From: Mizuhopecten yessoensis | Taxonomy: Eukaryota | Length of the DNA stretch: 64,000 nucleotides | NCBI RefSeq assembly: GCF_002113885.1 | Contig: NW_018408761.1 | Location: 997,580 to 1,061,579, forward strand | Reading direction: 5' to 3' | Shown: positions 27,592-60,843 of the stretch, one piece after another | How positions within the stretch are numbered: position 1 is the stretch's first letter | How the letters are laid out: every line of letters starts with the position of its first letter | Made by a program: the position numbers and the translations under genes | The notes under the pieces: model-generated | Seen by the model: the letters and a program-made list of their open reading frames with translations, nothing else | Database searches by the model: none | What the model was told of the DNA's origin: nothing

Positions 27592-27865
27592 CTGTAGTGG
27601 TATCACATCAGTGGAATAGCATGTCGATGTGAGATTTGTCCACGAGATGATGTCTGTTGTTGTTTAAATCCAAACTGTTTGTTTGGCCTCTTGTCAAATT
27701 TTAAAATGGTAACACTAGTTTTTGACTGACTAGTAGTAAGTTTTGACAAATCAGCCAGTTTGAGCAACTCAGTTGTTTCCATTGTTGCAACGTCCTCTTG
27801 ATTGGGATAAAAGTTCATATAAATCCCTGCCTCACTTAGATGGCTTTCCATGATGTACTTCTCAC

Positions 27866-33507: not shown

Positions 33508-33678
33508 ATGAACACTCAAGTTCAGAAGGCATGCCGTCCAGGTATTTCTGGTGTTAAAGTGGAGTGGCAGCAAAACATGGACACGACCAACAGACCTCTT
33601 CAGGCCCCTAATCACATCCCAAGTTTGTTTTCTGGGTCACGACAGGTCGTGTATGGCTTTGTACCTAACTGTACACAG
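33508..33678 (+). CDS. PARP4: PARP4-like exon 23
   Basis: Acceptor ATACTCTCCAG|. MNTQVQKACRPGISGVKVEWQQNMDTTNRPLQAPNHIPSLFSGSRQVVYGFVPNCTQ (compare vertebrate ..VSVKWQQ...LQAPAQVPSLF...LLVYGFIPHCTQ). Donor CAG|GTGAGA. Confidence 0.9.
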
Positions 33679-35760
33679 GTGAGAATTTTTATTACACTGA
33701 TGTGCTGGTAAGCAGGGGTTCAACTAGTTATATCTTTGTATGGCTTTGTACCTAACTGCACACAGGTGAGAATTTTTATTACACTGATGTGCTGGTAAGC
33801 AGGGGTTCAACTACTCCCCTCGGTAGGGACAAGTTATATCTTTGTATGGCTTTGTACCTAGCTGTACACAGGTGAGACTTTGTATTACACTGATGTACTG
33901 GTAAGCAGGGGTTCAACTACTCACCTCGTTAGGGACAAGTTATATCTTATCTTTGTATGGCTTTGTACCTAACTGTACACAGGCGAGAATTTTTATTACG
34001 AGGATGTGCTGGTAAGCAGGGGTTCAACTACTCGCCTCGTTAGGGACAAGTTATATCTTTGTATGGCTTTGTACCTGAATTTAGGCAGGGGAGGCTTTGT
34101 ATTACACTGATGTGCTGGTAAGCAGGGGCTCAACTACTCACCTCGGTAGGGACAAGTTATATCTTCATATGGCTTTGTACCTAACTGTACACAGGTGAGA
34201 ATTTTTATTACGAGGATGTGCTGGTAAGCAGGGTTTCAACTACTCACCTCGGTAGGGACAAGTTATATCTATGTATGGCTTTGTACCTAACTGTACACAG
34301 GTGAGACTTTTTATTACGAGGATGTGCTGGTAAGCAGGGGTTCAACTACTCCCCTCGGTAGGGACAAGTTATATCTTTGTATGGCTTTGTACCTGAATTT
34401 AGGCAGGGGAGGCTTTGTATTACACTGATGTGCTGGTAAGCAGGGGTTCAACTACTTATTTCTGGTGTTAAAGTGGAGTGGCAGCAAAACATGGACACGA
34501 CCAACAGACCTCTTCAGGCCCCAAATCACATCCCAAGTTTGTTTTCTGGGTCACGACAGGTCGTGTATGGCTTTGTACCTAACTGTACACAAGTGAGAAT
34601 TTTTATTACGAGGATGTGCTGGTAAGCAGGGTTTCAACTACTCACCTCGGTAGGGACAAGTTATATCTTCATATGGCTTTGTACCTAACTGTACACAGGT
34701 GAGAATTTTTATTACACTGATGTGCTGGTAAGCAGGGGTTCAACTACTCCCCTCGGTAGGGACAAGTTATATCTTTGTATGGCTTTGTGCCTAACTGTAC
34801 ACAGGTGAGACTTTGTATTACACTAATGTGCTGGTAAGCAGGGGTTCAACTACTCACATCGGTAGGGACAAGTTATATCACGCTTTATATCTAGATAAAA
34901 TAAAACGAGTTCATTACAAAGATGACCGGACAAAAAATGATGTATTCAATATCAATATCAATATTGATATATCTTTGTATGGCTTTGTACCTAACTGTAC
35001 ACAGGTAAGACTTTGTATTACACTGATGTACTGGTAAGCAGGGGTTCAACTACTTACCTCGTTAGGGACAAGTTATATCTTTGTATGGCTTTGTACCTAA
35101 CTGTGCACAGGTGAGACTTTGTATTACACTGATGTGCTGGTAAGCAGGGATTCAACTAGTTATATCTTTGTATGGCTTTGTACCTAACTGTACACTGGTG
35201 AGACTTTGTATTACGAGGATGTGCTGGTAAGCCGGGGTTCAACTACTCACCTCGGTAGGGACAAGTTATATCTATGTATGGCTTTGTACCTAACTGTACA
35301 CAGGTGACACTTTGTATTACGAGGATGTGCTGGTAAGCAGGGGTTCAACTACTCCCCTCGGTAGGGACAAGTTATATCTTTGTATGGCTTTGTACCTAAC
35401 TGCACACAGGTGAGAATTTTTATTACACTGATGTGCTGGTAAGCAGGGGTTCAACTAGTTATATCTTTGTATGGCTTTGTACCTAACTGCACACAGGTGA
35501 GAATTTTTATTACACTGATGTGCTGGTAAGCAGGGGTTCAACTAGTTATATCTTTGTATGGCTTTGTACCTAACTGCACACAGGTGAGAATTTTTATTAC
35601 ACTGATGTGCTGGTAAGCAGGGGTTCAACTAGTTATATCTTTGTATGGCTTTGTACCTAACTGTGCACAGGTGAGACTTTGTATTACACTGATGTGCTGG
35701 TAAGCAGGGGTTCAACTACTCACATCGGTAGGGACAAGTTATATCACGCTTTATATCTAG
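33543..35760 (+). repeat. Minisatellite (about 86-110 bp unit, about 19 copies) seeded from the last codons plus 5' splice site of exon 23; includes a 136-nt second copy of the exon 3' part at 34457-34592
   Basis: Each unit starts with TATGGCTTTGTACCTAACTGTACACAG|GTGAGA (YGFVPNCTQ plus donor). It continues with ATTTTTATTACACTGATGTGCTGGTAAGCAGGGGTTCAACTAC(TCACCTCGGTAGGGACAA)GTTATATCTTTG. Confidence 0.9.
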
Positions 35761-36078: not shown

Positions 36079-37118
36079 TTAGCTCACCTATGAGCTTATG
36101 GTATGGCGTGTTGTCACTCGTCTGTCATCCGCCCGTCATTGAGTCTGTCGTTCATCGTCCCATCAACGTTTTCTTTGAATGGCTTGTTCTCAAGAACTGG
36201 AGGACCTAGGGCCATGATATTTGTTCAGTAGGTACCTGGGACAGAGTGCTGTAATATTTTCTCAAATAAATGACCTTAACTTACTTTCTATGTCACAGGG
36301 GTTAAATATATAAAAAAACCTTTAAACAACTTCTTCTGAATAACCAGGAGGCCCAGAGTAATAATACTAGGTCAGTATGTACCTGGCATGAAGTGCTATA
36401 AAGTGTCCTCAAACAAATGACCTTGACTTACTTTCAAGGTCACAGGGGTCAAATGTGTTTAAAAACCTTTAAAACATCTTCTTCTGAATTTCTGAATAAC
36501 CAGTAGGCTAAGAGTCATGATATTTGGTTTGGCCAGTAGGTTCATGGGACAGAGTGCTATAAGTTTTCCTCCAATAAATAACCTTGACCTACTTTCAAGG
36601 TCATGGGTTAAATATGTAAAAAATAAATTAAACATCTTCTTCTAAATAACCAGGAAGCCCAAAGTAATAATACTTGGCCAGTAGGTACCTGGCATGAAGT
36701 GCTATAAAGTTTCCTCAAATAAATGATCTTGACATACTTTCAATGTCACAGGGTTCAAAATTGTAAAAATCTTTAAACAACTTCTTCTGAATAGCTAAGA
36801 GGCTTAGAGCAATGATATTTGGCTAGTAGGTACCTGGGACAGAATGCTATCACGTTTCCTCATATAAATTACCTAGACCTCCTTTACAGTCACAGGGTTC
36901 AAATATGTGAATACTTCTTCTGCAATACCAGGATGCCCTCATTGATGATGTTTGACAAGTAGCATGCTGGGATAGAGTAGTATAAAGCTTCATTTAGTCT
37001 GGAGCATTCTTAAGCCAAGGAAACTCAATATATTAAAATATTTACAAAAGTACTTTTATTGAGAATATTTTCCCATGATTGCTCAAATAACCAGGTGAGT
37101 GATAAGAGGGCCTCTTGT
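36079..37118 (+). mobile_element. Composite non-autonomous element, family A, with approximately 120-140-bp internal units
   Basis: Head TTAGCTCACCTATGAGCTTATGGTATGGCGTG. Tail AACCAGGTGAGTGATAAGAGGGCCTCTTGTA. The internal units are related to those at 20571-21494. Confidence 0.65.
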
Positions 37119-37340: not shown

Positions 37341-37421
37341 GCCTATTTGAAGGCAACTGTGGACAACATGGAGGTTTCTACGATGGTAGCAACAACAGAA
37401 CTCAACATTACACAAGGAGAG
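37341..37421 (+). CDS. PARP4: PARP4-like exon 24
   Basis: Acceptor TTTATTTTACAG|. AYLKATVDNMEVSTMVATTELNITQGE (compare vertebrate ..EFRTMVSTTELQKTTGT). Donor GAG|GTAATC. Confidence 0.85.
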
Positions 37422-41235: not shown

Positions 41236-41382
41236 GAGCCAGAAGAAATTGTAGAGGAACTGTTAAGAAAAGCTTTGATTGCAGAGAGCTTCTCACAACA
41301 GGAGGCAAATAGAACCTATGCCTCTATCTTAGATTACAAATCCTGTCTTCAAAACGATGCCAACAACGAACTCAAAGAAAAG
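41236..41382 (+). CDS. PARP4: PARP4-like exon 28 (lineage-specific linker; no homology recognised)
   Basis: Acceptor TTGATTCTGATCTAG|. EPEEIVEELLRKALIAESFSQQEANRTYASILDYKSCLQNDANNELKEK. Donor AAG|GTAACT. Phase 0 to 0. Confidence 0.6.
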
Positions 41383-41999: not shown

Positions 42000-42087
42000 G
42001 TTATGGAAGCAGCTGAAAGATTTTTCTCCTGTTCTAAAGATGACATTAGCCAAAATATGTTGGCAGAGTTTCGGAAAAGTTTTCCTT
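42000..42087 (+). CDS. PARP4: PARP4-like exon 29 (leader of the ubiquitin-like module)
   Basis: Acceptor GTTTTTGTTTTCAAAG|. VMEAAERFFSCSKDDISQNMLAEFRKSFP(F). Donor CCTT|GTAAGT, phase 1. This is the only frame compatible with both neighbouring exons. It contains an in-frame ATG at 42003. Confidence 0.6.
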
Positions 42088-42549
42088 GTAAGTATTAAAA
42101 TATGTTACTTAATATGTAAATGAGTGATAAGCTAGACAGACTATCCTGTATGTGCAGATTTGGCAGAGAAGTTAACACTCATGTCTCCCACAAACGCTGG
42201 AATGCAATCCCTTGAGCTATTTTAGCATGGATTTTCATTCCTCAGAGCTTTTGCAGCATAGATTTTTCAGAGAACATGTTTTTCTCCAATAATCCAGACG
42301 GAGAATTAAATTGTCTGCAGTGGGTGCTATAGTGACTGGGATGTAACAATCAAGTGAGATGTCACTGTGGTGAAAGATTTAATTAATACACCAGCCCACT
42401 GCACGACACAAACAAATGGAGATTTAGACGGAGCCTTTCCTTCTAATGTCTGTAGTTACTGTGTACCAGATGTTGATAATACTCTTTTCATATCAAAATA
42501 TATTTTGAAAAAAGAATTGATGAAAGTTTTACATTTATTCCCATTGCAG

Positions 42550-42726
42550 TCCCAATCGAGATACACACCCTGACTGGTAGGACTATCCCCGTGAGTGTGT
42601 CCGAGGGCGACACCGTGTCTGACTTGAAGAATAAGATCCATCAGATAGATGGACTTGACCCAGAGCAGCAGAGATTGATTGTTGGTGGGAAACCGCTGAA
42701 GGATCTCGCTGTTCTCTCCGATCTTG
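42550..42726 (+). CDS. PARP4: PARP4-like exon 30 (ubiquitin-like domain, first three quarters)
   Basis: Acceptor TTATTCCCATTGCAG|. (F)PIEIHTLTGRTIPVSVSEGDTVSDLKNKIHQIDGLDPEQQRLIVGGKPLKDLAVLSDL, which aligns with ubiquitin [58 protein letters not shown]. Donor CTTG|GTAATT, phase 1. Confidence 0.85.
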
Positions 42727-42744
42727 GTAATTATACCCCACATA

Positions 42745-43166
42745 ACGTTGTATAAACGGTGGGTCTGATCCCCATTTGGGACAGAGAGGCGGGGCTTTAA
42801 TATCCTTCTTCTTCCGTTGGGATGAAGGTATTTTGACCAAACTTGAACAGTAGCATCCTATGGGGAAGGGAAATCCATATTAGGTCTAATGCATCCTTGG
42901 GTGAAGGGGACCTAATTTTGTATCAATTGTGGGTCTAACCCTCCTATGGGCAAAGGGGCGGGGCCCAATAGAGGAAACATAGCAAATTCTTCAAATCCTC
43001 CTTTTCCTGTAGGAATGACAAGATTTTGTCCAATTGCATATAAATATAATCCCTGACTAATCATGTAATACATGTACATTTCCAGCATCATCTGGCTATT
43101 TCAACTTCAATTTTGCTAACATTTCCAGGTGAGCTATACAGGTCCTCTGGGCCTCTTGTTTTTTTT
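42745..43166 (+). mobile_element. Family A element, 5'-truncated, starting about 18 bp after the exon 30 donor
   Basis: Units of the ..TGTATAAA..GTGGGTCT.....CC......GGG.....GGGGC....AATAG.GGAAA type. Tail TTCCAGGTGAGCTATACAGGTCCTCTGGGCCTCTTGTTTTTT. Confidence 0.55.
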
Positions 43167-43239
43167 ATTTTATGAAACTCAACAAATGTAATCTTACACC
43201 ACACTCTGAAGTGTTGCTTTTCTTTTTTTCATCAAATAG

Positions 43240-43925
43240 TGGGCTGTTCAAATCACTATTCATCTGTGGTCTGTCTTCCATTCATCATTCAGTCCATCCA
43301 TCCATCCATTTGTCCTTAAACAATTCTTGATAGTGCTATTTCTCAGAGAGATCTTTCTCAAGTTTCACCTGAAGGTTCCCTTTGTTCCCTAGTTATGCTT
43401 ATCAAATTAAGGGTCCTGACAAAGTGTTGTTATTTTTCGGGTCGATCAAAATTCCAATATGGCCGACATGGCCACCATTTTGAAAAAAAACAATTTCAAA
43501 CTTAAGGTCAAGTTCTGCTGGGCCGATTAAACTTAAACTTTTTAGGAATGATCGACTTATTGTCCTGACAAAGTGTTGTTATATTTCGGGTCAATCAGAA
43601 ATCCAATATGGCCACCACGGCCCCCATTTTGAAAAACTATTTCAAACTTAAAGTCAAGTTCTAATGGGCCGATTAAACTGAAACTTTGTAGGAATGATCG
43701 ACTCATGGTCCTGACAAAGTGTTGTTATTTTTCGGGTCGATCAGAAATACAATTTGGCTGCCATGGCCGCTATTTTGAAAATAACTATTTCAAACTTAAA
43801 ATCAAGTTCTAATAGGCCCATTTAACTGAAACTCTTTCTAAGAATGATCAGCTCATGGTCCTGACAAACTTAAGTTAACGTTATACTTAACTATTTTTTA
43901 CTCAAATTGGTACATATTTCAACAA
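43240..43925 (+). mobile_element. Family B element (approximately 131-bp units, about 3.5 copies), 3'-truncated
   Basis: Same GGTCCTGACAAAGTGTTGTTATTTTTCGGGTCGATCA.AAAT.CAATATGGCC...GCC.CCATTTTGAAAA units as 6443-6886. No tail motif. Confidence 0.55.
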
Positions 43926-44738
43926 CAACAAAAAATCTTGGATTTCAACAGTTCAGTTTGTTGTCACTTTTTCCCATAAAGTCCTTAAACAATAAGCATT
44001 GTACTAGTAAATAGGTAAAACAACCAGCTCGCTTTGAAAGAACAGTGTCATACACAGCAGAATGAAGGCTTTGCTCAAAAGTTACCACAATTAAGGTGCG
44101 TTACTGTTAACGTGACTCAATCTTACAGATAAGAGAGAAAAGAAGAATCTTACATAGAATCTATGAAGATAATAAGAATAATATCTTTTATTTAACCAGG
44201 GTTACATATTTAGACAATGTCTAGTTTACAATATGGCGCTGAAGCAAACTATATATACAAGCATGACAACAATTTAAGATAACAGTATAACACTGCAGTA
44301 TATGGTATCATCACAGTCAATGTAACTTGAAGTTAAGTAATCCTAAATTAGAATTTAATAGTGAACACTTGCATATCACACGAGTGTTACTGAATGATAT
44401 GGTTAAAGCATAGTCAAATATACATAATATGTTAATATGGCAAAGCGTAAAAAATGACAAGATATACACCAATTAGTCCAATATAGTGTGTATTAAAATG
44501 AGACAAAGAAGTCGGTGGTGTGAAAAATAATAATTTATGATAGAAATATGATGGTACGATAGTCGGTGTCAAGGTCCCCCGGGGATCTCTTGTTTTAAAA
44601 GACAGAAAGATGTGAAAATGAAAATAAAGCATTAATGGGGAAAATAAAACACGAACTGCTAAAGAGGTTAATGTCGTTTTCTTTAAGGCAGTGGCCAATC
44701 ATATCGTCCACAGTCATATCTAAAAGCAGATCTATGCT

Positions 44739-46463
44739 TTTTAGCTCACCGGCCTGAAGGGCAAGTGAGCTTATGCTATGGCGCGGCGTCAGGCATCCGT
44801 CATCTTTTCCTAAAAAACGCTACTTGTCATAAACGACTGAGCAGATTTTGACCAAATTTGGTCAGAAGCATCCTTATGGGAAGGGGAACAAATTTTGTAT
44901 AAATGGTGGGTCTGGCCCCCTAGGGGCTGAGGGGTGGGGCCCAATAGGGAAAATATAGCAAATTCTTTAAAATCCTTCTTCTTTTGTAGGAATAAAAGGA
45001 TTGGTTCCATATTTGGTCTGAAGCATCCTTGGGGGAAGAGGAACCAATTTTGTATAAATGGGGGGTCTGGCCCCTGAGGGGCCTGAGCGACAGGCCAAAT
45101 AGGGGAAACATAGCAAATTCTTTAAAATCCTTCTTCTGTAGGAATGAAAGGATTTGTTCCATATTTAGTCTTAAGCATCCTTGGGTTAAGGGGAACCAAT
45201 TTTGTATAAACTGTGGGTCTGGCCCCTTTGGGGCCTGAGCGACGGGGCCCAATAGGGGAAACATAGCAAATTCTTTAAAATCTTTCTTCTGCAGGAATGA
45301 AAGGATTTGTTCCATATTTGGTCTGAAGCATCCTTGGGTGAAGTGGAACCGATTTTGTATAAGCAAGGGGTCTAGCCCCCATGGATCTGAGGGGCGGGGC
45401 CAAAAGGGGTCAATTGCGCTATATTGATTTAAGCGACTTCTTCTCTGGAACTAAGAGATGGATATCAACCATATTTGACTGGAAGCATCCCTCTGTAGTG
45501 GAGATTCACAATTGTACAAATGGTTGGGCTGACATCCCAGGGGGCTGAGGTGCGGGTCCAAAAGGGCGCAATTTGGCTATATTGGTGTACGACTTCTTCT
45601 GTAGCATTATACCATGGATATCGATCATATTTGGTCAGAAGCTTTCATGGGAAGTAGGGATTCAAAATTGTACAAATGGTGGGGCTGACCCCCCGTGCTA
45701 AGGGGTGGGGCCAAAAAAAGTTTATTACTTGGAAATGGTTGAGATCCCAACCATATAACCATATATATAATTGTGGAGTATGAAGAGAAGCATTCACATT
45801 TGCTTCAAGGATGGCCTAGGGTCTGGCCCCACCCTTTGAGACATAGTCCCTGGGTCATATCTTTGAAACGATTGAGATCCGCACCCCAGAACTATATATA
45901 CAAATGCTTGGCATAAAGAGACAAAAGTAGTCATGGTATTAAAATAGACCCTGGGGTCTGACCGAACCCCTAGGGACCTAGTTTCTTAGTCACAGCTTCG
46001 AAACAGTTGAGATCCCCACCCTATAACTATGCATATATACAATTGCTGAGTATAAAGAGATGAATGCACATATGCTTCCAGGATGGCCTTGGGGTCTGCC
46101 CAAACTTTGCAGACTTAACCCCTGGGTAAATATAACTTTGAAACAGTTGAGATCCCCACCCCAAGACTATAAATACAAATGCTAGACAAAAAGAGACGAA
46201 TATAGTCATGATATTATAATTGATCCTGGCGTCTGGCCACAACCCGAGGGATCTAGTTTCTGAGTCACAGCTTGGAAACAGTTGAGATCCCCACCCCATT
46301 ACCATACATTAAATTGCTGGGCATGAAAAATCTAATACAGACATACTACAAGAATTGACATTGGGGTCTGGCATATACCCTTGGATCTCATTTGGAGAAT
46401 ATTTTGCTTTTTGATTGCTTAGATATTCAGGTGAGGAATTCAGGCCCTCTGTGCCTCTTGTTT
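44739..46463 (+). mobile_element. Long family A composite element (three different internal tandem arrays), ending about 130 bp upstream of exon 31
   Basis: Head TTTTTAGCTCACCGGCCTGAAGGGCAAGTGAGCTTATGCTATGGCGCGGCGTC. Internal arrays of about 120 bp (44860-45400), about 165 bp (45400-45720) and about 150 bp (45720-46320). Tail TTCAGGTGAGGAATTCAGGCCCTCTGTGCCTCTTGTTT. Confidence 0.7.
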
Positions 46464-46593
46464 ACCATAAGAATACATCATATTTGATTGAGAGGATGTG
46501 CTTTTAGAGGTGGCAGCTGTTTTGATACAACGTTATGTGAGGGCATGAGTTAGCCTCTATATAACAATTGTATTTTTTTTCTATATTCTTCAG

Positions 46594-46694
46594 ATCTGGA
46601 GTATAATGCTGTCTTCCTGTTACCAAGGCTGCGAGGGGGACTTAGTTTTGGTCTCAAGGAAGATTTGAAAACAAAGCGTATTCTCGCGGAAAAC
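46594..46694 (+). CDS. PARP4: PARP4-like exon 31 (ubiquitin-like domain C-terminus with RLRGG)
   Basis: Acceptor TTTTCTATATTCTTCAG|. (D)LEYNAVFLLPRLRGGLSFGLKEDLKTKRILAEN. RLRGG is at 46626-46640. Donor AAC|GTATGA, phase 0. Read-through of the donor gives V then TGA. Confidence 0.8.
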
Positions 46695-46777
46695 GTATGA
46701 TATGACAATAAGACATAAAATGTGGATTCCACTCTCAAAAATCTAAGGGTGGGGTAGAAAGTGGTTTATTGGACATT

Positions 46778-48637
46778 TTTAGCTCACCTGCCCGAACGGC
46801 AAGTGAGCTTATGCCATGGCGCGGCGTCCAGCATCCTTCAACTTTTCCTAAAAATCGCTACTAGTCATAAACGACTGAGCAGATTTTGACCAAATTTGGT
46901 CAGAAGCATCCTTATGGGAAGGGGAACAAATTTTGTATAAATGGTGGGTCTGGCCCCCCTGGTGGCTGAGGGGTGTGGCCCAATAGGGAACACATAGTAA
47001 ATTCTTTAAAATCCTTCTCCTTCTGTAGGATTGAAAGGATTTGTTCCATATTTGGTCTGATGCATCCTTAGAGAAAGAGGAACCAATTTTGTATAAACCG
47101 TGGGTCTGGACCCCGAGGGGCCTGAGGGGTGGGGCCCAATAGGGAACACATAGTAAATTCTTTAAAAACCTTCCTCTTCTGTAGGAATGAAAGGATTTGT
47201 TCCATATTTGGTCTGAAGCATCCTTAGGGAAAGAGGAACCAATTTTGTATAAACCGCGGGTCTGGCCCCCGAGGGGCCTGAGGGGTGGGGCCCTATAGGG
47301 ATCACATAGTAAATTCTTTAAAATCCTTCCTCTTCTGTAGGAATAAAAGGATTTGTTCCATATTTAGTCTGAAGCATCCTTGGGTAAAGGGGAACCAATT
47401 TTTTATAAACCATGGGTCTGGCCCCACAGGGGCCTGAGCGACGGGGCCCAGTATGGGAAACTGAACAATTTCTTTAAAATCCTTCTTCTCTGTAGGAATG
47501 AAAGGATTTGTTCCATATTTGGTCGGAAGCATCCTTCGGTGAAGGGGAACCAATTTTGTATAAACAAGAGGTCTGGCCCCCAGGAACTTGAGGGGCGGGG
47601 CCAAAAGGGGGCAGTTGCGCTATATTAATTTAAGCGACTTCTTCTCTGGAACTAAGGGATAGATATCAACCATATTTGACTGAAAGCATCCCTCGGAAGA
47701 GGAGATTCAAAATTGTACAAATGGTTGGGCTGACCCCCCGTGCTAAGGGGTGAGGGTTGCTATTAACGACTTATTCTGTAGAATTATGCTAAGGATATCA
47801 ATCATATTTGGTCAGAAGTATTCATGGGAGGTAGGGATTCAAAATTGTACAAATGTTTGGGCTGACCCCCCTGTGCTAAGGGGTTGGGCCAAAAAAGGTT
47901 TATTACTTGGAAATGGTTGAGATCCCCGCGGTATAACCATATATACAATTGTGGAGTATAAAGGGAAGCATGCACATTTGCTCCCAGGATGGCCTAGGGT
48001 CTGGCCCCACCCTTTGAGACATAGTCCCTGGGTCATAACTTTGAAATGATTGAGATTTCCACCCCAGAACTATATATACAAATGCTTGGCATATAGAGAC
48101 AAAAGTAGTCATGGTATTAGAATAGACCCTGGGGTCTGACCGAACCCCTAGGGACCTAGTTTCTTAGGCAAAGCTTCGAAACAGTTGAGATCCCCACCCT
48201 ATAACCATGCATATATACAATTGCTGAGTATGAAGAGATGATTGCACATATGCTTCCAGGATGGCCTTGGGGTCTGCCCCACCCTTGCAGACTTAACCCC
48301 TGTGTCATAACTTTGAAACAGTTGAGATCCCCACTTTAAAACTATATACAAATGCTGGGCTTAAAGAGAAGAAACCAGTCATGATATTAAGAATTGATCC
48401 AGGGGTCTGGCCACAACCCTAGGGATCTAGTTTCTGAGTCACAGCTTGGAAACAGTTGAGATCCCCACCCCATAACCATACATTAAATTGCTGGGCATGG
48501 AAAATCTAATACAGACATACTACAAGAATTGGCATTTGGATCTGGCATATTCCCTTGGATCTCATTTGGAGAATATTTTGCCATGATTGCTTAGATATCC
48601 AGGTGAGCGATTCAGGCCCTCTGGGCCTCTTGTTTTT
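46778..48637 (+). mobile_element. Long family A composite element, starting about 84 bp downstream of exon 31
   Basis: Head TTTTTAGCTCACCTGCCCGAACGGCAAGTGAGCTTATGCCATGGCGCGGCGTC. Same array order as 44739-46463. Tail TCCAGGTGAGCGATTCAGGCCCTCTGGGCCTCTTGTTTTTT. Confidence 0.7.
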
Positions 48638-48765
48638 TAAATCTACTCTTCATGAATGATAGGTTTCTTCAGTACCTTTAAATTGTGAATGCAATTACCC
48701 TGATGTCTCCCATTCACCACTGGGAAGGGGGAAATTCTGCTACATTTCCTATGGTTATAACAGCT

Positions 48766-50481
48766 TTTAGCTCACCTGGTCCGAAGGACCAGGGTGAGCT
48801 TATGCCATACCATGGCATCCGTCGTCCGTACGTACGTCAACAATTTCTTTAAACGACTTCTTCTTCTTAACCACTGGTTGGAATTAAACTAATTTTGACT
48901 GGAAGCATCCCTAGGTGGTTGGGATTCAAAATTGTACAAATGGTGGGGCTGACTCCCCAGGGGGCTGAGGGGTGGGGCCAAAAGGGGTCAATTTGCCCAT
49001 ATTGCTGTAAGCGACTTCTTCTCTGGAACTAAGAATTGGATATCAACCATATTTGACTGGAAGCATCCCTAGGTGGTGGTGATTAAAAATTGTACAAATG
49101 GCGGGGCTGACTCCCCAGGGGGCTTAGGGGGGGCCAAAAGGGGGCAATTTTGCTATATTGCTACAAACGACTTCTTCTGTAGAACTGTGCACTGGATATC
49201 AATCATATTTGATCAAAAGCATTCCTGGGAGGCAGGGATTTAAAATTGTACAAATGGTGTGGCTGACCCCCCAGGGGGCTGAGGGGCAGGGCCAAAAAGG
49301 GTATTTGGCTATACTGCTTTAAGTGACTTCTTCTCTGGAACTAAGTGATGGATATCAACCTTATTTGACTGGAAGCATCTCTAGGTGGTGGAGATTCAAA
49401 ATTGTACAAACGGTTGGGCTGACCCCCCAGGGGGCTGAGGGGCGGGGCCAAAAGGGGGCAATTTGGTTATATTGCTATAAATGACTTCTTCTGCAGAACT
49501 ATGCCATGGATATTGATCATATTTGGTCGGAAGTATTCATGGGAGGCAGGGATTCAAAATTGTACAAATGGTGGGGCTGACCCCCCGGGCTAAGGGGTGG
49601 GGCCAATAAAATGTATTACTTGGAAATGGTTGAGATCCCCACCATATAACCATATATACAATTGCTGAGTATAAAGAGAAGAATGCACATTTGCTTCCAG
49701 GATGTCCCTAGGGTCTGGCCCCACCCTTGGAGACATAGTCCCTGGGCCATAACTTTAAAACGGTTGAGATCCCCACCCCAAAACTATATATACAAATGCT
49801 GGGCATAAAGAGACGAATGCAATCATGATATCAGAATAGACCCTGGGGTCTGACCGAACCCCTAGGGACCTAGTTTCTTAGTCACAGCTTGGAAACAGTT
49901 GAGAGCCCCACCCTATAACCGTATATATACAATTGCTGAGTATAAAGAGATGATTGCACATATGCTTCCAGGTTGGCCTTGGGGACTGCCCCACCCTTGG
50001 AGACTTAACCCCTGGGTCATAACTTTGAAATGGTTAATATCCCCACCCCAAAACTATATATACAATTGTTGGGCATAAAGAGACGAATGCAGTCATGACA
50101 TTAGAATTGATCCCAGGGTCTGCCCCACCCTTGCAGACTTGGCCCCTGGGTCATAACTTTGAAACGGTTGAGATCCCCACACCAAAACTTTATATACAAA
50201 TGCTTGGCAAAAAGAGACAAATGCAGTCACGATATTAGAATCGATCCTGGGGTCTGGCCACAACTCTAGGGACCTAGTTTCTGAGTCAAAGCTTGGAAAC
50301 AGTTGAGATCCCCACCCCATAACCATACATAAAATTGCTGGGCATGAAAAATTTAATATAGCTATGCTACAAGGATTGGCCTTGGGGTCTGGCATATTCT
50401 CTTGATCTCATTTGGAGAATAGTTTGCCATGATTGCTTAGGTATCCAGGTGAGCGATACAGGCCCTCTGGGCCTCTTGTTT
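48766..50481 (+). mobile_element. Long family A composite element (third consecutive copy)
   Basis: Head TTTTAGCTCACCTGGTCCGAAGGACCAGGGTGAGCTTATGCCATACCATGGCATCCGTCGTC. Tail TCCAGGTGAGCGATACAGGCCCTCTGGGCCTCTTGTTT. Confidence 0.7.
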
Positions 50482-50554
50482 ATTTATCCTCAGCAGAAAA
50501 TAATTCAGTTCAATTTTTGTTATGGCATGGCATCGATATAGAATCTATTTTAGT

Positions 50555-51060
50555 TGTTGTACAACATAAAGATTTGTGGTTAAATTCTAAGCTATGAGAT
50601 ATGAAGTCTCTCTTACTCACCGGTACTCAGTATAACATGAAGATTTGTGGTTAAATTCTTAGCTATGAGATATGAAGTCTCTCTTACTCACCGGTACTTA
50701 GTATAACATGAAGATTTGTGGTTAAATTCTTAGCTATGAGATATGAAATCTCTTTTACTTGCTGTATAACATGAAGATTTGTGGTTAAATTCTTAGCAAT
50801 GAGATATGAAATCTCTTTTACTTGCTGTATTATATGGAGATTTGTGGTTATATTCTCAGCTATATGATATAGAATCTCTTTTACTTGGTGTATAATATGG
50901 AGATTTGTAGTTATATTCTCAGCTATATGATATAGAATCTCTTTTACTTGCTGTATAACATGTAGATTTGTGGTTAAATTCTCAGACATGTGATATAGAA
51001 TATCCTTTACATGGGGAAAATATGAAGTTTGTTGGTAAATTATTAGCTATTTTTAGTGAA
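50555..51060. repeat. 62-71-bp minisatellite, about 8 copies, 170 bp upstream of exon 32
   Basis: The (A/G)AGATTTGTGGTTAAATTCT.AGCTATGAGATATGAA.TCTCT.TTACT.. units are spaced 71, 71, 63, 62, 65, 63 and 62 bp apart. This generates ORF 50684-50989 (-). Confidence 0.9.
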
Positions 51061-51232
51061 CATTGATTAATCAGCCTTAATATTTTTACTTTTGTCAGTT
51101 AAACTATATTTAGTCACTATACTCAATGTAAACTTCTTAATAATACCCACAAAAACCACAGAAGCAATGATTCATGAGTTTACTATTGTACAGTACAGGT
51201 ACATGTGAAGTATTAACATTTCTGTATTTCAG

Positions 51233-51459
51233 GACATGAATGAGTATGATCAGATATATGGTAAGAAGGTGCATACGGAAAAGGACAAAAGCTGTACTGA
51301 TGATGGAAAAAACCCGGTGAAGATGTCCTCATTGTTTTCTCCTTTTAGGCAATCCTTACGAATGATGGCTCCAAGGAAACAGTTAGCAACCAAAGCTGCC
51401 AGAAAATCTGCACCTGCAAACTTTGATGAAAATGAGGAGGAGCAGAATGAGGATGACAG

Positions 51460-51497
<38 letters not shown>

Positions 51498-54313
51498 TTG
51501 AAAAGATGGGCAACTTTAGCTGCATGGCACTTCCAGATGACAACGTGGTTGATGATGCTACGAACAAGAAACAGGAAGTGTCAGATGTAGGAAGAATACC
51601 AGACTCTCCACTCTCAGCAACACAGTTTGGCCCCTTGTCTCCAAAATGTTCAGATTCATTTGGTACAAACTTTGAAAAATTTGAAATCTCTCAGTATTTA
51701 GATGAAGACATGGAGATTGATTTAGATACTGAAGACCCGGCATTCCTCATTCTCACTTCTGAAATATCTGACATATTTTCACCTTCAATGGCAGGCCATT
51801 CTCAGGACACTCCAGCCTATATATCAACCTCCCCATCTTACAAACCAACTTCCCCATCCTATTCGCCCACTTCCCCATCTTACAAACCAACTTCCCCATC
51901 CTATTCGCCCACCTCCCCATCTTACAAACCAACTTCCCCATCCTATTCGCCCACCTCCCCATCTTACAAACCAACTTCTCTATCCTATTCGCCCACTTCC
52001 CCATCTTACAAACCAACTTCTCCATCCTATTCACCAAATAGAAGAGCACGAAGAGCCAAATCAACATTTGAGGATTTCCAACATGAATCAACATCAAACA
52101 ATAAAGATTTTGTGGTTTCAGGTTCAAGACAAGCAAAGTCAAGCAGCACATCTAGTGAACATGGTTTGTGTGGAGCTCCAGTGCAAGCAGAACCAGGCAG
52201 TAAACCAAGTCAGAGCTTCAATTTTAATGCTTCGCTACAAACAGCATCAAGCAATGAACCAACACAAAGTTTGGGATTGGGGGCTCCAAACCTAGCAGAA
52301 CTAGGCGGTAAACCAAGTCAGGGGTTCAATTTTAGTGCTCCTCTAGTAACAGCATCAAGAAATATATCAACACAAAGTTTGGGATTGGGGGCTCCAAACC
52401 TAGCAGAACCAAACACAATGCCAAGTCAAGGGTTTTCCTTTGGAGCTCGAATGCAAACAACTCAAAGCGCTTCACCAGCCGAAGGTTTCAGTTTTTCTCA
52501 GAATCAAACATTGCAGAGCATTACCAGTAAAGGAAGCCATTGTTTTGGATTTGGGACTTCAAAACCAGCCGGAGCAAGCAGAACGACAAGTCAAGGGTTT
52601 TCCTTTGGCGCTCAAATGCAGTCCCAACGATGCAATATACCAACCCAAGATTTCTATTTTGGAGCTTCAAATTCAGCAGGTTTTGGAGATGACGGTGACA
52701 GACGTGGTGGTTATGGAGGTGTCAGTGTTAGACCTGGTGGTTATGGAGATGACAGTGACAGACGTGGTGGTTATGGAGGTGTCAGTGTTAGACGTGGTGG
52801 TTATGGAGGTGTCAGTGAGGGACTTGGTGGTTATGGAGGTGTCAGTGTTAGACGTGGTAGTTATGGAGGTGACAGTGTTAGATGTGGTGGTTATGGAGGT
52901 GTCAGTGAGGAATGTGGTGGTTATGGAGGTGTCAGTGAGGGACTTGGTAGTTATGGAGGTGTCAGTGAGGGACTTGGTAGTTATGGAGATGACGGTGTCG
53001 GACGTGGTGGTTATGGAGATGACAGTGTCGGACGTGGTGGTTATGGAGGTGACAGTGTCGGAGGTGATGGTTATGGAGGTGTCAGTGAGGGATTTGGTGG
53101 TTATGGAGGTGACAGTGAGGGATGTGGTGGTTATGGAGGTGTCAGTGTTAGATGTGGTGGTTATGGAGGTGTCAGTGAGGGACGTGGTGGTTATGGAGGT
53201 GACAGTGAGGGACGTGGTGGTCCTAGACTTGCTGGTTCTAAAGATGGACATGTTTCTTACATAGAAACAGCACCAACATTTACATATTTGAAGGATCTTG
53301 ACTTGAATTTAGCAAAACATGATCCAAAAACTAGGATATTGAAGGAAAATGACAGAAGACCTTCCAGTGTAACAGAGAAGGATCTGCCTTCACAGCCTTT
53401 CAGACATGTACAGGATAAAATGTTCCCACCAGACTTTGATGAATCCTTATTACCTAAACAAAAGAGAAAAATTCCTCCTGTTGGAAGAGGAGGTTCTGGA
53501 TTCACTGCAAGGAATGACCAGGGTCCTGCTGAAACAACCAAAGAACAAGGTCGAAGGTCATTAAAGTCAGTCAGAGGCGCAATGCATGGTGCAAGATCAA
53601 GAGACAGAAATAGGGAACAATCTCGTGAGCTTATTGTGCTGGATAAGAGTAAAAAACTAAGTTTGAGTCATGACAGAAGGCGGAGGAGTTTGAGTAGAAG
53701 TTTGAGTCGAGACAGAAGACAGAGGAGTTTGAGTAGAAGTTTGAGTCGAGACAGAAGGCGGAGGAGTTTGAGTAGAAGTTTGAGTCGAGACAGAAGGCGG
53801 AGGAGTTTGAGTAGAAGTTTGAGTCGAGGAAGGGGGAGAAGAGACTTGGAAAGATGTTACAGTAGAGATAGAGCAAGAAAGGAAAATAAAAAAATGCACA
53901 GATCAAGTGGAAATAATGATACAAACAGTAGGAATAAAAATAGGGACAAAGCAGGAAGCAAAATAGACAGAGATCCTGCAAGAGAAAGTAAGAAACAGAT
54001 AAAGCATAAAAATGAAAAGAAGGAGCAAACAAAGGCTGATGAACAGGTTGTCAAAACATTTGGGAAAAAAGGGAAGAAAAGGGAACAGACAAGGGATGAT
54101 GAAGAGATTGTCAAAACTGGAGGGAAGAACCTGTCAGGAAAGTTGGAATATGATGATCATGAGAAAATGGACTTTACAGTGGACATGGCACCAACTTTGA
54201 AAGTCTGGGATGTAACATCAGAGACAGGCAAGGACATTGTGAAATTCATAAAGTATATTTCTGATTCAATCTTCTTTTATATACAAAAGATCTGTAATTT
54301 TCTACAAATTCAA
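51233..54313 (+). CDS. PARP4: PARP4-like exon 32: 3081-nt low-complexity exon (H3-tail copy, poly-Asp, CTD-like heptads, FG-like, GGYGG, RS and Lys-rich modules)
   Basis: Acceptor TTCTGTATTTCAG| with phase 0 from exon 31. Single open frame of 1027 codons (the track ORF 51236-54337 is the same frame). Donor CAA|GTGAGC after ..KICNFLQIQ (compare vertebrate PARP4 ..SCFLQIK..). An alternative weaker donor is ATCT|GTAATT after 54293. Confidence 0.8.
51368..51418 (+). other. Histone H3 tail copy: [17 protein letters not shown] (identical to H3 residues 15-31)
   Basis: Direct translation of GCT CCA AGG AAA CAG TTA GCA ACC AAA GCT GCC AGA AAA TCT GCA CCT GCA in the exon 32 frame. Confidence 0.9.
51461..51496 (+). 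repeat. (GAT)12 coding microsatellite, poly-Asp tract
   Basis: Twelve uninterrupted GAT codons within [18 protein letters not shown]. Confidence 0.95.
51824..52039 (+). repeat. RNA polymerase II CTD-like heptad array (42-bp two-heptad unit, about 10 heptads)
   Basis: [72 protein letters not shown]. Confidence 0.9.
52214..52687 (+). other. FG-nucleoporin-like segment
   Basis: SFNF, GFNFS, GFSFG, GFSFS, CFGFG, GFSFG, FYFG and AGFG motifs, separated by uncharged S/T/Q/N/A/G/P-rich spacers. Includes a 34-aa duplicated unit ([20 protein letters not shown]). Confidence 0.7.
52700..53221 (+). repeat. 30-bp coding tandem repeat, about 17 copies of the decapeptide (R/L/C)GGYGG(V/D)S(V/E)(R/G)
   Basis: [50 protein letters not shown]...[14 protein letters not shown]. 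Other frames on both strands stay open across it because of the repeat. Confidence 0.9.
53657..53833 (+). repeat. 42-bp coding tandem repeat, 4 copies of [14 protein letters not shown] (RS-domain-like)
   Basis: [62 protein letters not shown]. Confidence 0.9.
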
Positions 54314-54344
54314 GTGAGCTTAAGTGAACTTTCTTGATTAGCTT

Positions 54345-54975
54345 GTAATGATATACAGTCCTGCAGTAAAACTTGTCTAAGAACTCACCTGTCTAAATCA
54401 TCTTGTAGTGTTACAGTCCTACAGTAAAACTTGTCTTAGAACTCACCTGTCTAAATCATCTTGTAATTATATTTATACAGCCCTACAGTAAAACTTGTCT
54501 AAGAACTCACCTGTCTAAATCATCTTGTAATTATATATATACAGTCCTACAGTAAAACTTGTCTTAGAACTCACCTGTCTAAATCATCTTGTAATTATAT
54601 ATATACAGCCCTACAGTAAAACTTGTCTAAGAACTCACCTGTCTAAATCATCTTTTAGTGTTACAGCCCTACAGTAAAACTTGTCTAAGAACTCACCTCT
54701 CTTAATCATCTTGTAATTATATATATACAGTCCGACAGTAAAACTTGTCTTAAAACTCACCTGTCTAAATCATCTTTTAGTGTTACAGCCCTACAGTAAA
54801 ACTTGTCTAAGAATTCACCTGTCTAAATCATCTTGTAGTGTTACAGTACTACAGTAAAACTTGTCTAAGAATTCACCTGTCTAAATCATCTTGTAGTGTT
54901 ACAGCCCTACAGTAAAACTTGTCTAAGAACTCACCTGTCTTAATCATCTTGTAATTATATATATACAGTCCTACA
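54345..54975. repeat. 57-65-bp minisatellite, about 10 copies, starting about 30 bp after the exon 32 donor
   Basis: CCTACAGTAAAACTTGTCT(A/T)AGAACTCACCTGTCTAAATCATCTTGTA(GTGTTACAG / ATTATATATATACAG) repeated. Confidence 0.9.
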
Positions 54976-55605
54976 GCATTTCATGTCTCAGAATCGATTT
55001 GTGTAAACCAACTTGTGTCCATGTTATATTTCATGGTAATCTCAAAATCCAAGATGGTTGCCCTTAGTTATCCTTTTCATTGGGTAAAACCCTTCCTCTG
55101 AGACATTTTCAATTTTTGTATACTAGAAAATGTTTCTTATGTGAAACTCAAATAATGTTGTTACTTTTCATGACAAAAATACAAGATAGCCACCAATGGC
55201 TCCGATTTGCAGACAGTTGCTATTTCTCTATAACAGTAGCAATTGACTTCTAACTAATCTAAATGATTCAAATTTAATGTTCCTGTATTGTTTAAAAAAA
55301 ATGTAATTCATGTGAGCGTTAAAGCTTATTTCGTTTCTTGTTATTATACATATATCTACACTGTCCATAACAACCAAATGCATGCTCAAGGAAAGGCTAA
55401 CTGTTAAAACAGAATCTGATGTCATGCACTTTTTTCCCATATTGATCATTAAGTTTCATTCAACAAACCTTAATCGTTGGATATGGAAAAAATATCCTAG
55501 AATAGATAACAAACTACAGTTTAGAAGTATCATAAATCATTTGGTATATCTAGAACATCTAATTAAAAAGAAAAGAGAATAATAACATTTGTTCTATTGT
55601 TACAG

Positions 55606-55640
55606 GTGAAGCAGCTCCCTCCTCAGTTCCTGCGATGTAA
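55606..55640 (+). CDS. PARP4: PARP4-like exon 33 (mini-exon; donor choice uncertain)
   Basis: Acceptor TTCTATTGTTACAG|. VKQLPPQFLRC(N) using donor TAA|GTATGA (ends 55640, phase 2). An alternative frame, (C)EAAPSSVPA(I), uses donor GAT|GTAAGT (ends 55636). It is also phase-consistent if exon 32 ends at 54293. Confidence 0.55.
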
Positions 55641-56228: not shown

Positions 56229-56956
56229 TTTAGGTCACTTGAGCTTAAGCTCAATTGACCTATTGTTATCCGTCTTTGTCCGTCGTCTTCCGTCGTGCGT
56301 CGTCAGTCGTGTGTCGTCATTTTACATTTTCAACTTAAGCTGAAATACTGGCAAAGGGATTTCATTAATATTTCATGGGAAGTTTACTGACATTTTCCAG
56401 ACAAAGTGTTAATATTTTTCGGGTCAATCAGAAATCCAATATGGCCACCACGTCTGCTATTTTGAAAAACTATTTCAAACTTAAAGTCAAGTTCTGCTAA
56501 GCCGATTGAACTGAAACTTTGTCGGAATGATCGACTCATGGTCCTGACAAAGTATTGTTATTTTTCGGGTTGATCCGAAATCTGATATGGCCGACATGGC
56601 CGCCATTTTGAAAAACTCTTTCAAACTTAAAGTCAAGTTCTACTGGGCCGATTGAACTAAAACTTAATAGGAATGATCGACTCATGGTCCTGACAAAGTG
56701 TTGTTATTTTTCGGGTCGATCAGAAATCCAATATGGCCACCAAGGCCGCCATTTTGAAAATAACTATTTCAAACTTAAAGTCAAGTTCTGCTAGGCCGAT
56801 TTAACTGAATCTTTTTAGGAATTATTGACTCATGGTCCTGACAAACTTAAGTTAACGTTATACTTAACTATTTTTTACTCAAATTGGTACATATTTCAAC
56901 AACAAAAATAAATACTGTAGGACTCGGGTGACCGTTAAGGCCCATGGGCCTCTTGT
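56229..56956 (+). mobile_element. Family B composite element directly abutting the previous element
   Basis: Head TTTTTAGGTCACTTGAGCTTAAGCTCAATTGACC. About 131-bp units, about 3.5 copies. Tail CTCGGGTGACCGTTAAGGCCCATGGGCCTCTTGTT. Confidence 0.65.
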
Positions 56957-57305
56957 TATAATTATGTTTTAAGTACAATAATGCATACAGAAGTATTTTG
57001 TTTTCTTTTATTATCTTTTAGGATAGCTATTTAAATGTTTTGTTCATGAGTAACTGTAATGGAAACCAGCCTTCAGGAGAATATTCTCTTATTTATTTGC
57101 TTTTTATTACAAGGGCTTCTGTATACCACTAGGTATCCTCCTTAAACCTAGAAGAAGAATGTAATACTTCGATGTATAATGGATATTCGATTTCTACACT
57201 TGATTTCAACTCATTAATTATTGGAAACATTACAGAATTCTGCTGCTGATATATCACACATTAAATCAAATTGAATTAAATTTGAATGCAAAATTCACTT
57301 TCAGT

Positions 57306-57393
57306 TGTGAGGATGTCGGGATCTGGAAAGGCATTGTACGAAAGATTTCAAAAGTCCCTAACACTGAGGATCTCCTGCAACACATTAATACGG
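57306..57393 (+). CDS. PARP4: PARP4-like exon 34 (C-terminal vault-interaction-like region)
   Basis: Acceptor AAATTCACTTTCAG|. (N)CEDVGIWKGIVRKISKVPNTEDLLQHINT (compare vertebrate ..WQDAVPWTELLSLQTED). Donor ACG|GTACAG, phase 0. The other frames hit stops here or in exon 35. Confidence 0.7.
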
Positions 57394-58913: not shown

Positions 58914-59013
58914 GGACAATATTGGGAACTGACTCCAGAGCTGTGTCAAACCCTCGGTGTTTTCTACATCAAGGTCACCAACCAGCTGAAGCTACATGGC
59001 CTGTACTCCTTAG
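58914..59013 (+). CDS. PARP4: PARP4-like exon 35 (C-terminal vault-interaction-like region)
   Basis: Acceptor TTCTTGTGTTTCACAG|. GQYWELTPELCQTLGVFYIKVTNQLKLHGLYSL(G) (compare vertebrate DGFWKLTPELGLILNLNTNGLHSFLKQKGIQSLG). Donor TTAG|GTATGT, phase 1. Confidence 0.85.
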
Positions 59014-60475: not shown

Positions 60476-60843
60476 GAAGCCATGCTGCATCCTTAGGAGA
60501 AAACATGGTAGCAACATATCTTGTGGTCCTCAAGATAATACAGATCATTTACCAGCAGATGAACAGAAAACCACTGAAATTGGACCTGGCCGGATTTGCG
60601 TCTTTGGACTTGATGAACTGGACATTGAATTGTAACAATACCCTGTCCATCAAGTTAGATACTACGCGGTCAACAGGATGCTCAGCGGTGTTGTATCTCC
60701 ACAATGAAATATCAGGTGTTCACAAATGGTTGACCGAGAAGCGTGGTGAACATGAACGACTCTGTAGGCAGTTAGAACTAGGACATTCCTTACAAACTTT
60801 CACTTGGAACCTTTTCTGTGCTCTCAACGAAAAGCCAGTCTGA
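60476..60843 (+). CDS. PARP4: PARP4-like exon 36 (last coding exon)
   Basis: Acceptor AATCTGTGTTGTAG|. (G)SHAASLGENMVATYLVVLKIIQIIYQQMNRKPLKLDL...SAVLYLHNEISGVHKWLTEKRGEHERLCRQLELGHSLQTFTWNLFCALNEKPV. Stop TGA at 60841-60843. Compare vertebrate ..LLDLIATMLVLQFIRTRLEKEG...AFEAIKQASEWVRRTEGQYPSICPRLELGNDW. Confidence 0.85.

Follow-up and report, generated by a model that had tools for sequence, protein, structure and literature searches.

The question raised by this locus is what the tail of PARP4 is for. To our knowledge, what vaults and PARP4 do has been an open question since the 1980s and 1990s. The sole prior evolutionary clue has been positive selection on a featureless, disordered mammalian exon (PMC4038475). 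Here we describe a 64,000-nt window of the genome of the scallop Mizuhopecten yessoensis (assembly GCF_002113885.1, contig NW_018408761.1, 997,580-1,061,579) that encodes a PARP4 orthologue; nucleotide positions are those of this window. In this gene, what is probably the corresponding exon is legible: it encodes recognisable ligands, each with known binders, on the same chain as the enzyme and the predicted vault anchor. We tentatively propose that this tail may serve as a bait array for proteins that bind or modify ubiquitin, histone tails, the carboxy-terminal domain (CTD) of RNA polymerase II (Pol II), and FG, RGG and RS motifs.

Gene structure

Mollusc PARP4 proteins were mapped on the window with tblastn and the splice sites were then refined. 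The resulting model has 36 exons on the + strand (4780-60843), which join into one open frame of 2584 codons with a natural stop at 60841-60843. Twenty-eight exons precede the segment of interest, including an 81-nt exon (37341-37421) that was missed at first by tblastn. The predicted protein has the order BRCT-PARP-VIT-VWA, a 93-aa linker, a ubiquitin-like domain (UBL), a disordered collage of about 1000 aa, and MINT. Coordinates of the individual exons and modules are collected in Table 1.

Exons 29 to 31, the donor of exon 28 and the acceptors of exons 32 and 33 all lie at AG/GT sites. The exons so delimited can be joined free of stops, and their order is the same as in mollusc PARP4 proteins. 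These three exons, as well as the starts of exons 32 and 33, had been placed correctly in an initial annotation of the window. Exon 29 is 76% identical to that of Ylistrum and its length is kept across bivalves, and exon 30 can be aligned to the UBL that PARP4-like proteins of Littorina and Batillaria carry. Alignment of the Ylistrum protein to the window follows the order of exons 29, 30 and 32 and continues with three more exons at about 57.3, 58.9 and 60.5 kb.

Comparison with orthologues upheld the gene and the order of its modules and corrected the 3' end of exon 32 and the frame of exon 33. The initial annotation had placed the donor of exon 32 at 54313, after which the frame breaks and runs into a stop in exon 35, and it had read exon 33 in a different frame. 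At the exon 32/33 junction, the protein of Ylistrum balloti reads ...LKVWNGPANTGETVSSPVSEIFEDAGIWKG (in the longer reading, ...LKVWNGPANTGE-TVSSPVSEI-FEDAGIWKG...), and the Ylistrum genome has the donor ACAG/GCAAGC, followed by a 31-nt exon that ends AT/GTAAGT; the pattern in the window is the same, with CAG/GCAAGG as the donor. Because Ylistrum shares both the unusual GC donor and the 31-nt exon, we end exon 32 at 54227 and take the 31-nt exon as exon 33.

With this end, exon 32 is 2995 nt long, instead of 3081 nt, and leaves in phase 1; exons 29-32 together come to 3361 nt, instead of 3447 nt, with a remainder of 1 on division by 3. The earlier view that exon 32 alone and exons 29-32 together are frame-neutral, and that exon 28 could be spliced straight to exon 33 without a change of frame, had to be given up: joining 28 to 33 or 31 to 33 shifts the frame, so that translation ends early, in exon 35, and MINT is lost. 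This makes exon 32 look obligatory, in line with what has been reported for human exon 30. The other frame-neutral block of the initial annotation, exons 29-31 (366 nt, phase 0-0), is present in our model, and its symmetry is weakly informative because 23 of the 35 introns are in phase 0 anyway. The giant exon is part of a stretch of 1042 codons without a stop (51209-54334), for which the chance expected from base composition is about 5e-32. We have little doubt that the region 42000-54227 is a genuine part of the scallop PARP4 orthologue, with a giant exon that cannot be skipped in frame and UBL exons that can.

Domains of the enzyme half and the C-terminus

In the enzyme half (exons 1-28), Pfam identified BRCT (residues 3-83), PARP (393-567, E=3.6e-24), VIT (628-737, E=1e-37) and VWA (875-1026), and the top database matches of the scallop protein were PARP4 orthologues, in agreement with the first description of the gene as PARP4-like. 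The contexts of the H-Y-E residues are present as LMHASS (437), GIYFS (477) and DEFVVY (548), and by analogy with H862, Y896 and E988 of PARP1 we take these to be the catalytic residues, which are predicted to be intact.

A Pfam search with the C-terminal 224 aa matched no family. A profile was built from the C-termini of six bivalves, the window sequence being its first row; searched against PDB, it yielded residues 1580-1703 of human PARP4 (9bw6, 9bw7, 11jf) as the sole significant match (E=9.3e-6); the human MINT/MVPID domain comprises residues 1562-1724 (PMC12280208). A mixed profile of invertebrate and vertebrate sequences matched human MINT with E=1.4e-41, and the window C-terminus alone found the correct MINT region with E=0.11. 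The motifs GLxSLG and RxLELG are conserved in the MINT alignment. The UBL and the low-complexity collage are accordingly situated, as first described, between the post-VWA block and a MINT-type end.

The collage of exon 32

Exon 32 encodes, in this order, a histone H3 tail, an acidic run, an acidic/hydrophobic segment, a Pol II CTD-like array, FxFG motifs, an RGG/GY array, an RS array and a K-rich stretch. The resemblance of these modules to the H3 tail, the Pol II CTD, FG nucleoporins, RGG/GY and RS sequences, first noticed by eye, is borne out by motif counts and by complete identity over the 17 residues of the H3 match. Four of the ten CTD heptads are exact YSPTSPS and another four are YKPTSPS; they are encoded by a 42-nt DNA repeat (4.9 copies, 96% matches), and a homology search with exon 32 alone was dominated by RPB1 CTD proteins as top matches. 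The FxF/FG region has eight motifs in 163 aa, with 8.6% charged residues and 69% S/T/N/Q/G/A/P. The RGG/GY region is 43% Gly, with 14 GYG and seven RGG. The DNA repeats under the arrays have periods of 42, 108, 30 and 39 nt and identities of 87-96%; they are young.

A Pfam scan of exon 32 detected no histone family, no nucleoporin family and no RRM or other RNA-binding domain, and RPB1 domains are absent. The flanks of the H3 segment are acidic and of low complexity and, to judge from this context, the segment is a mimic and not a histone. The peptide RQSLRMM, which precedes it, was considered as a copy of H3 residues 4-10 with K9M (compare RTNQTARMSTGGKAP of Littorina) and was rejected, because Ylistrum has RRATGGKG at this place and the resemblance is too slight.

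The acidic/hydrophobic segment (51671-51778) is the best-conserved non-repetitive piece of exon 32. It contains ISDIF, has a composition like that of acidic activation domains and matched nothing tested. The idea that it is an RPB1 linker copied along with the CTD was discarded, since it has no similarity to RPB1 linkers.

The ubiquitin-like domain and the linker

The ubiquitin-like module that had been assigned to exons 29-31 matches PF00240 with E=1.1e-15 (57.5 bits, cut-off 25.4). Its closest relatives in PDB are ubiquitin chains, which align through RLRGG, and it is identical to ubiquitin at 33 of 76 residues. The scallop UBL retains the Leu8, Ile44 and Val70 recognition surfaces and the RLRGG tail (PRLRGG). 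Across 17 PARP4 UBLs, Leu8 and Val70 are each kept in 16, L73, R74 and G75 in all 17, and Arg42 and Gly76 in 16-17, while Lys63 is kept in just two. The UBL of the scallop is internal, and the residue that follows GG (46623-46643 region) is Leu in both scallops and Pro in 10 of the 17 PARP4 UBLs. Ubiquitin-Pro junctions resist cleavage by deubiquitinases, as is known from ubiquitin fusions. The scallop GG-Leu junction may be cleavable where most PARP4 UBLs would resist.

A UBL is found at the same location in mussels, oysters, unionids, Dreissena, caenogastropods, heterobranchs, the sponge Dysidea and one transcriptome-derived protein, and it is absent from the corresponding site in venerid clams. 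The initial annotation had regarded exon 28 as a lineage-specific linker; the 93-aa segment encoded by exons 28-29 is, however, of equal length in scallops, mussels, oysters and unionids. The in-frame ATG at 42003, suggested as the start of an internal-promoter isoform, does exist, but conservation gives such a start no support, the Met being replaced by Leu in oysters and by Tyr in unionids.

In deuterostome and sponge PARP4s, 14-3-3 is found at the place of the exon 28-29 segment, and we considered whether the latter is a decayed 14-3-3; the bivalve profile had no 14-3-3 match in PDB and the idea was rejected. The best PDB match of this profile was the C-terminal ARM10 of importin-alpha3 (E=0.15, not significant; oyster ENRDLAEKVLEAIDQFFSSQD), which may be a further mimic or chance.

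Comparison with Ylistrum and selection

A 2459-aa query with masked repeats was used to retrieve full-length relatives (2000-3300 aa). The best of these was Ylistrum balloti LOC132555562 (3048 aa), which is 82% identical in the best local alignment (56% of the query covered); a partial protein of Pecten maximus is 76% identical. Both Mizuhopecten and Ylistrum have the order UBL, H3 mimic(s) with acidic runs, acidic/hydrophobic segment, CTD-like, FG, RGG, RS, K-rich and MINT. The two genera are unlike in copy number: six H3-tail motif matches, in repeated copies, occur in Ylistrum, whose RGG and RS arrays are also far longer.

Between the window and the Ylistrum locus, dS is about 0.95. The dN/dS ratio is 0.086 for exons 1-28, 0.42 for the UBL (exons 30-31), 0.45 for exon 32 and 0.24 for the MINT exons 34-36. 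Neither genus has a stop in its giant exon, at a dS of about 1. Because an unselected stretch of 3 kb would not remain open in two genera at this distance, exon 32 appears to be under selection. The complete H3 identity, together with the kept ubiquitin surface and RLRGG, points to selection on resemblance.

PARP4 tails of other animals

Module lists for other species were read from annotated gene models. Collage-type PARP4 tails were found in molluscs, a sponge, a lancelet, hemichordates and sea urchins. The tail of Mytilus has Q-rich and FG sequence, three H3 stretches (including residues 36-54), CTD, RGG, RS and a diverged clathrin N-terminal propeller. Mercenaria has a calmodulin lobe, H3 and H4 tails, CTD and RS, and Dreissena has a UBL, an actin fragment, H3 residues 2-17 in exact form, CTD, poly-Pro and a fragment of the HSP70 substrate-binding domain. 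Elysia, Aplysia and Batillaria tails contain the ribosomal P-stalk tail (P-tail; EEEFGFGLFDDD type). Dysidea combines a UBL, actin, a P-tail, a VAMP SNARE motif and WH2; Branchiostoma has 14-3-3, a P-tail, CTD, a VAMP-like segment, FG and H3; and sea urchins have poly-Pro, CTD, FG, a P-tail and RS. The actin module in other phyla is an N-terminal fragment, and what the H3 mimics of different species have in common is a core of ARKS/ARKST. A motif pattern scan of 154 PARP4 tails found the motifs almost confined to invertebrates, with vertebrates at about zero. As the fragments in other species are diverged copies with PARP4 sequence on both sides, they argue against neighbouring genes that were joined by mistake.

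As far as these gene models go, the collage is not private to this scallop, and the kinds of modules recur across invertebrate phyla. The cassette, which the initial annotation described as inserted, is not an insertion of recent origin; the UBL occupies the same site in bivalves, gastropods and a sponge. The modules of PARP4 tails also appear to turn over fast. Two Dysidea PARP4 proteins have enzyme halves that are about 95% identical by our own reading, with scattered substitutions, and unrelated tails.

The scattered substitutions led us to reject splice variation as the relationship of Dysidea X2 and X3, which are instead paralogues or haplotypes. Within-species pairs with different tail modules were seen in Dysidea avara (P0257, P0258) and in Amphiura filiformis (P0137, P0255), the latter compared by Pfam lists only; the two members of each pair are reported from contigs of equal length, and the pairs may be tandem paralogues or haplotypes with swapped tails. 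Isoforms X1 and X2 of Physella differ by a 150-aa tail cassette.

In the literature, we found no description of a collage of ubiquitin, H3, CTD, FG, RGG and RS modules, nor the idea of a decoy for PARP4, which agrees with the earlier impression that the architecture had not been described.

Possible function of the tail

The explanation that we prefer is that the array captures proteins by offering them copies of their usual ligands. The captured proteins would most plausibly be pathogen effectors, possibly host enzymes. Capture would set them beside the PARP domain, at or inside vaults, and there they could be ADP-ribosylated or sequestered. To this explanation as a whole, anatomy and bait array together, we assign a probability of about 0.42; the bait or decoy mechanism taken by itself is put forward tentatively, at odds somewhat short of even.

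The largest exon of vertebrate PARP4 is disordered and under strong positive selection, and in human PARP4 this exon (exon 30) is present in all isoforms (Daugherty et al. 2014, PMC4038475). The position and size of exon 32 suggest that it is the counterpart of this exon. Exon 30 has been proposed to contact pathogen factors for ADP-ribosylation or vault sequestration (PMC4038475), and it has also been suggested as a site of viral cleavage or modification (Suskiewicz et al. 2023, PMC10450202). MINT fusions bring cargo into vaults (PMC12280208), and the scallop collage would be displayed at or inside them. In a broader version, which we consider rather doubtful, PARP4 and the vault would form an ancient surveillance device across invertebrates, reduced in vertebrates, whose tail copies hub proteins, traps effectors or toxins, ADP-ribosylates them and locks them into vaults. 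Such a device would be an animal counterpart of the integrated decoys of plants and would give the vault a function.

Several points weigh against such a role. For this species the bait mechanism is wholly something that we infer from the sequence. We know of no mollusc pathogen effector that targets these motifs, and that the host proteins copied in the tail are targets of pathogens is general knowledge from other systems, not from molluscs. The scallop modules are all related to the nucleus or to ribonucleoproteins (RNPs), which would fit an endogenous role in transport, condensates or targeting too. The dN/dS ratio of exon 32 was obtained on 821 aligned codons, in an alignment that is unreliable in its repeats, and the tails of other species are those predicted in annotated gene models. 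Finally, the human MINT residues that contact MVP are S1614, K1618 and R1689 (PMC12280208), and two of the three differ in the scallop: Ser1614 is kept, Lys1618 is replaced by His and Arg1689 by Gln, with an Arg one position earlier, a pattern that is invariant in the six bivalves. Because of these differences, the docking of scallop PARP4 to the vault is only something that we infer from the homology of MINT.

Among the other explanations, the one that survives best, while still unlikely in our estimate, is that the tail is an endogenous scaffold or adaptor. It would recruit host readers and writers (karyopherins, CTD kinases, SRPKs, PRMTs), target the protein to pores, speckles or condensates, or form a selective phase in the vault lumen. 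The purely nuclear and RNP character of the scallop modules and the conservation of their order between genera suit this explanation, as do the textbook roles of the H3 tail, RGG and RS as import signals and of FG in binding transport receptors. Condensates and short linear motifs have been associated with the disordered parts of PARPs (PMC10450202), and the title of another paper, 'PARP4 interacts with hnRNPM to regulate splicing', is in the same vein. However, actin, 14-3-3, calmodulin, VAMP, P-stalk tail, clathrin and HSP70 fragments in the tails of other animals do not fit a theme of nuclear transport. In addition, the sets of modules change fast and differ even between the near-identical Dysidea paralogues, the rate of evolution of the tail is about five times that of the enzyme half, and the vertebrate counterpart is positively selected, whereas a housekeeping adaptor would be expected to be steadier.

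A tolerant linker between VWA and MINT could also have gathered exon-shuffled debris and expanding repeats passively, with no function of its own. The youth of the repeat arrays, the differences in their copy numbers between genera and the dN/dS of exon 32 are what such a process would leave behind. We nevertheless consider it improbable, as both genera have kept the 1042-codon frame open at a dS of about 1 and have conserved the order of modules, the 17 H3 residues, the ubiquitin surface and RLRGG have all been retained, and the same hub proteins recur independently in distant phyla.

Slightly less probable again is a role of the tail as substrate or regulator of its own molecule, in which it would supply tethered acceptor sites, such as the serine of H3 ARKS, or pseudo-substrates that tune auto-modification. 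The conserved ARKS/ARKST core would suit this role, H3 ARKS being, as textbooks have it, a major site of serine ADP-ribosylation by PARP1/HPF1, and the contexts of the catalytic motifs are intact; yet the folded modules (ubiquitin, 14-3-3, clathrin propeller, calmodulin) and the CTD, FG and RS arrays would be left unexplained.

The initial annotation favoured an optional, frame-neutral cassette, skipped by splicing exon 28 to exon 33, and an isoform that starts from the ATG at 42003. The phase 0-0 block of exons 29-31, the missing UBL of venerids and the two Physella isoforms could be taken in this sense. With exon 32 at 2995 nt, though, skipping leads to the stop in exon 35 and loss of MINT, the donor at 54313 is not the conserved one, Met 42003 is not conserved and most introns are in phase 0, which leaves this explanation very improbable. 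A separate gene, a pseudogene or an assembly chimera within a PARP4 intron, which might be suspected from the absence of the window's own protein from the protein collection searched, can be practically dismissed, given the single frame through 36 exons on one strand with canonical junctions and the same arrangement annotated in Ylistrum, with its conserved unusual splice features, and in many molluscs.

Other features of the window

The gene contains a number of tandem repeats besides those of exon 32. In the intron after exon 23, an 87/106-bp tandem array (33650-35720) has about 20 copies by our own count. Each copy includes the last ~27 nt of exon 23 and its GT donor (YGFVPNCTQ/gtgag), so that the real donor is followed directly by a long row of duplicates, and part of the exon body occurs a second time at 34458-34601. 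Intron 32 has a 58/122-bp array of about 10 copies (54346-54976), which begins 9 nt past the stop that closes the exon 32 frame, and intron 12 has a 321-bp repeat (14677-15926; 3.9 copies, 96% identity). Satellite families of 145-156 bp are found in introns at 18764-19228, 20660-21357, 36214-36908, 43412-43868, 44852-45362, 46890-47691, 48894-49606 and 56396-56845. They occupy both long introns inside the UBL block and account for the rise in GC at 44-50 kb. Two open frames on the - strand have no Pfam match: a Ser/Asp-rich one of 474 aa upstream of the gene (1230-2651) and a hydrophobic one of 217 aa (27839-28489) within the 7-kb intron 20.

Table 1. Exons and sequence modules of the scallop PARP4 gene (window positions)
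Feature	Position	Strand	Basis
Exons 1-28: BRCT, PARP catalytic, VIT, VWA, post-VWA block	4780-41382	+	Exon model, Pfam, order as in orthologues
Exon 28, start of 93-aa bivalve-conserved linker	41236-41382	+	AG/GT sites, orthologue comparison
Exon 29, 88 nt, second half of linker (VMEAAERFF...FRKSFP), in-frame ATG at 42003	42000-42087	+	AG/GT sites
Exon 30, 177 nt, N-terminal two thirds of UBL	42550-42726	+	Pfam PF00240
Exon 31, 101 nt, end of UBL; PRLRGG up to 46640, then LSFGLKEDL	46594-46694	+	Splice sites, ubiquitin alignment
Exon 32, 2995 nt, disordered collage; enters in phase 0, leaves in phase 1, GC donor CAG/GCAAGG (54227/54228)	51233-54227	+	
Histone H3 tail mimic, 17/17 identical to H3 residues 15-31	51368-51418	+	
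Acidic run, poly-Asp, ending VEK	51419-51505	+	
Non-repetitive acidic/hydrophobic segment, 36 aa, common to Ylistrum	51671-51778	+	
Pol II CTD-like array, 10 heptads, YSPTSPS alternating with YKPTSPS	51818-52039	+	
FxFG-type region, 8 motifs such as SQGFSFGA	52208-52696	+	
RGG/GYGG array	52697-53221	+	30-nt repeat, 18 copies
Basic KQKRK motif	53450-53503	+	
RS array, 13-aa unit, about 5 copies	53657-53845	+	39-nt repeat, 4.4 copies, 95% matches
K/E/R-rich stretch ahead of the junction	53846-54142	+	
Exon 33, 31 nt, (G)EAAPSSVPA, GTAAGT donor	55606-55636	+	31-nt exon at matching site in Ylistrum
Exons 34, 35 and 36 (stop included)	57305-57392, 58914-59013, 60476-60843	+	Together encode the MINT/MVPID-like vault-docking domain; profile matches to human MINT

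Comparison with known systems

If the tail does act as bait, it would represent a new class of animal innate-immune architecture. If it is instead an endogenous scaffold, vaults would be tied directly to nuclear transport and RNP biology. In either case, the vague idea of a contact made by a disordered region could be turned into defined experiments that use the modules as bait.

Integrated decoys of plant NLRs, such as RRS1-WRKY and RGA5-HMA, are copies of pathogen-targeted host proteins fused into a defence protein. The scallop tail shares with them the lineage-variable fused modules and their fast turnover. It differs in that the carrier is a predicted vault-docked ADP-ribosyltransferase and not an NLR, in that many of the modules are short linear motifs, and in that the case made here is from sequence only.

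In the NLRP1 'tripwire', a rapidly evolving disordered stretch reportedly mimics the target of a pathogen enzyme. RLRGG/L in the scallop UBL might, likewise, be cut by viral or bacterial proteases of the deubiquitinase type, which would free the enzyme half from its anchor; such cleavage is purely hypothetical in the scallop, and GG is followed by Pro in 10 of the 17 PARP4 UBLs.

Histone mimics are known from the ARSK tail of influenza NS1 and from ARKT of G9a. These are short H3-like ARKS sequences in non-histone proteins, as in the scallop, whereas the scallop mimic has 17 consecutive residues identical to H3, with up to six copies in Ylistrum, and stands among other mimics.

With vertebrate PARP4, the scallop protein shares the order BRCT-PARP-VIT-VWA-disordered-MINT and one very large disordered exon that is followed by a few small MINT exons. 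Human exon 30 is always included (PMC4038475) and scallop exon 32, similarly, cannot be skipped in frame. In vertebrates the exon accounts for about 360 aa, nondescript and free of recognisable mimics, whereas that of the scallop encodes about 1000 aa with recognisable motifs and has a UBL ahead of it.

The only published host module in a PARP4 tail that we found is 14-3-3, which is appended to PARP4-like (clade 5) proteins of amoebae, Capsaspora, lancelet and sea urchin (Perina et al. 2014, PMC4245714). As in the scallop, a conserved host hub protein follows VIT-VWA; in contrast to the scallop and its relatives, the published case concerns a single domain, which was read as signalling, without ubiquitin, histone, CTD, FG, RS or actin modules.

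Engineered MINT fusions, finally, have the same topology as the scallop protein, with cargo N-terminal of MINT loaded into the vault lumen (PMC12280208) and the collage N-terminal of MINT in the scallop. The difference is that the scallop protein is a natural fusion, which is predicted to dock to its own MVP.

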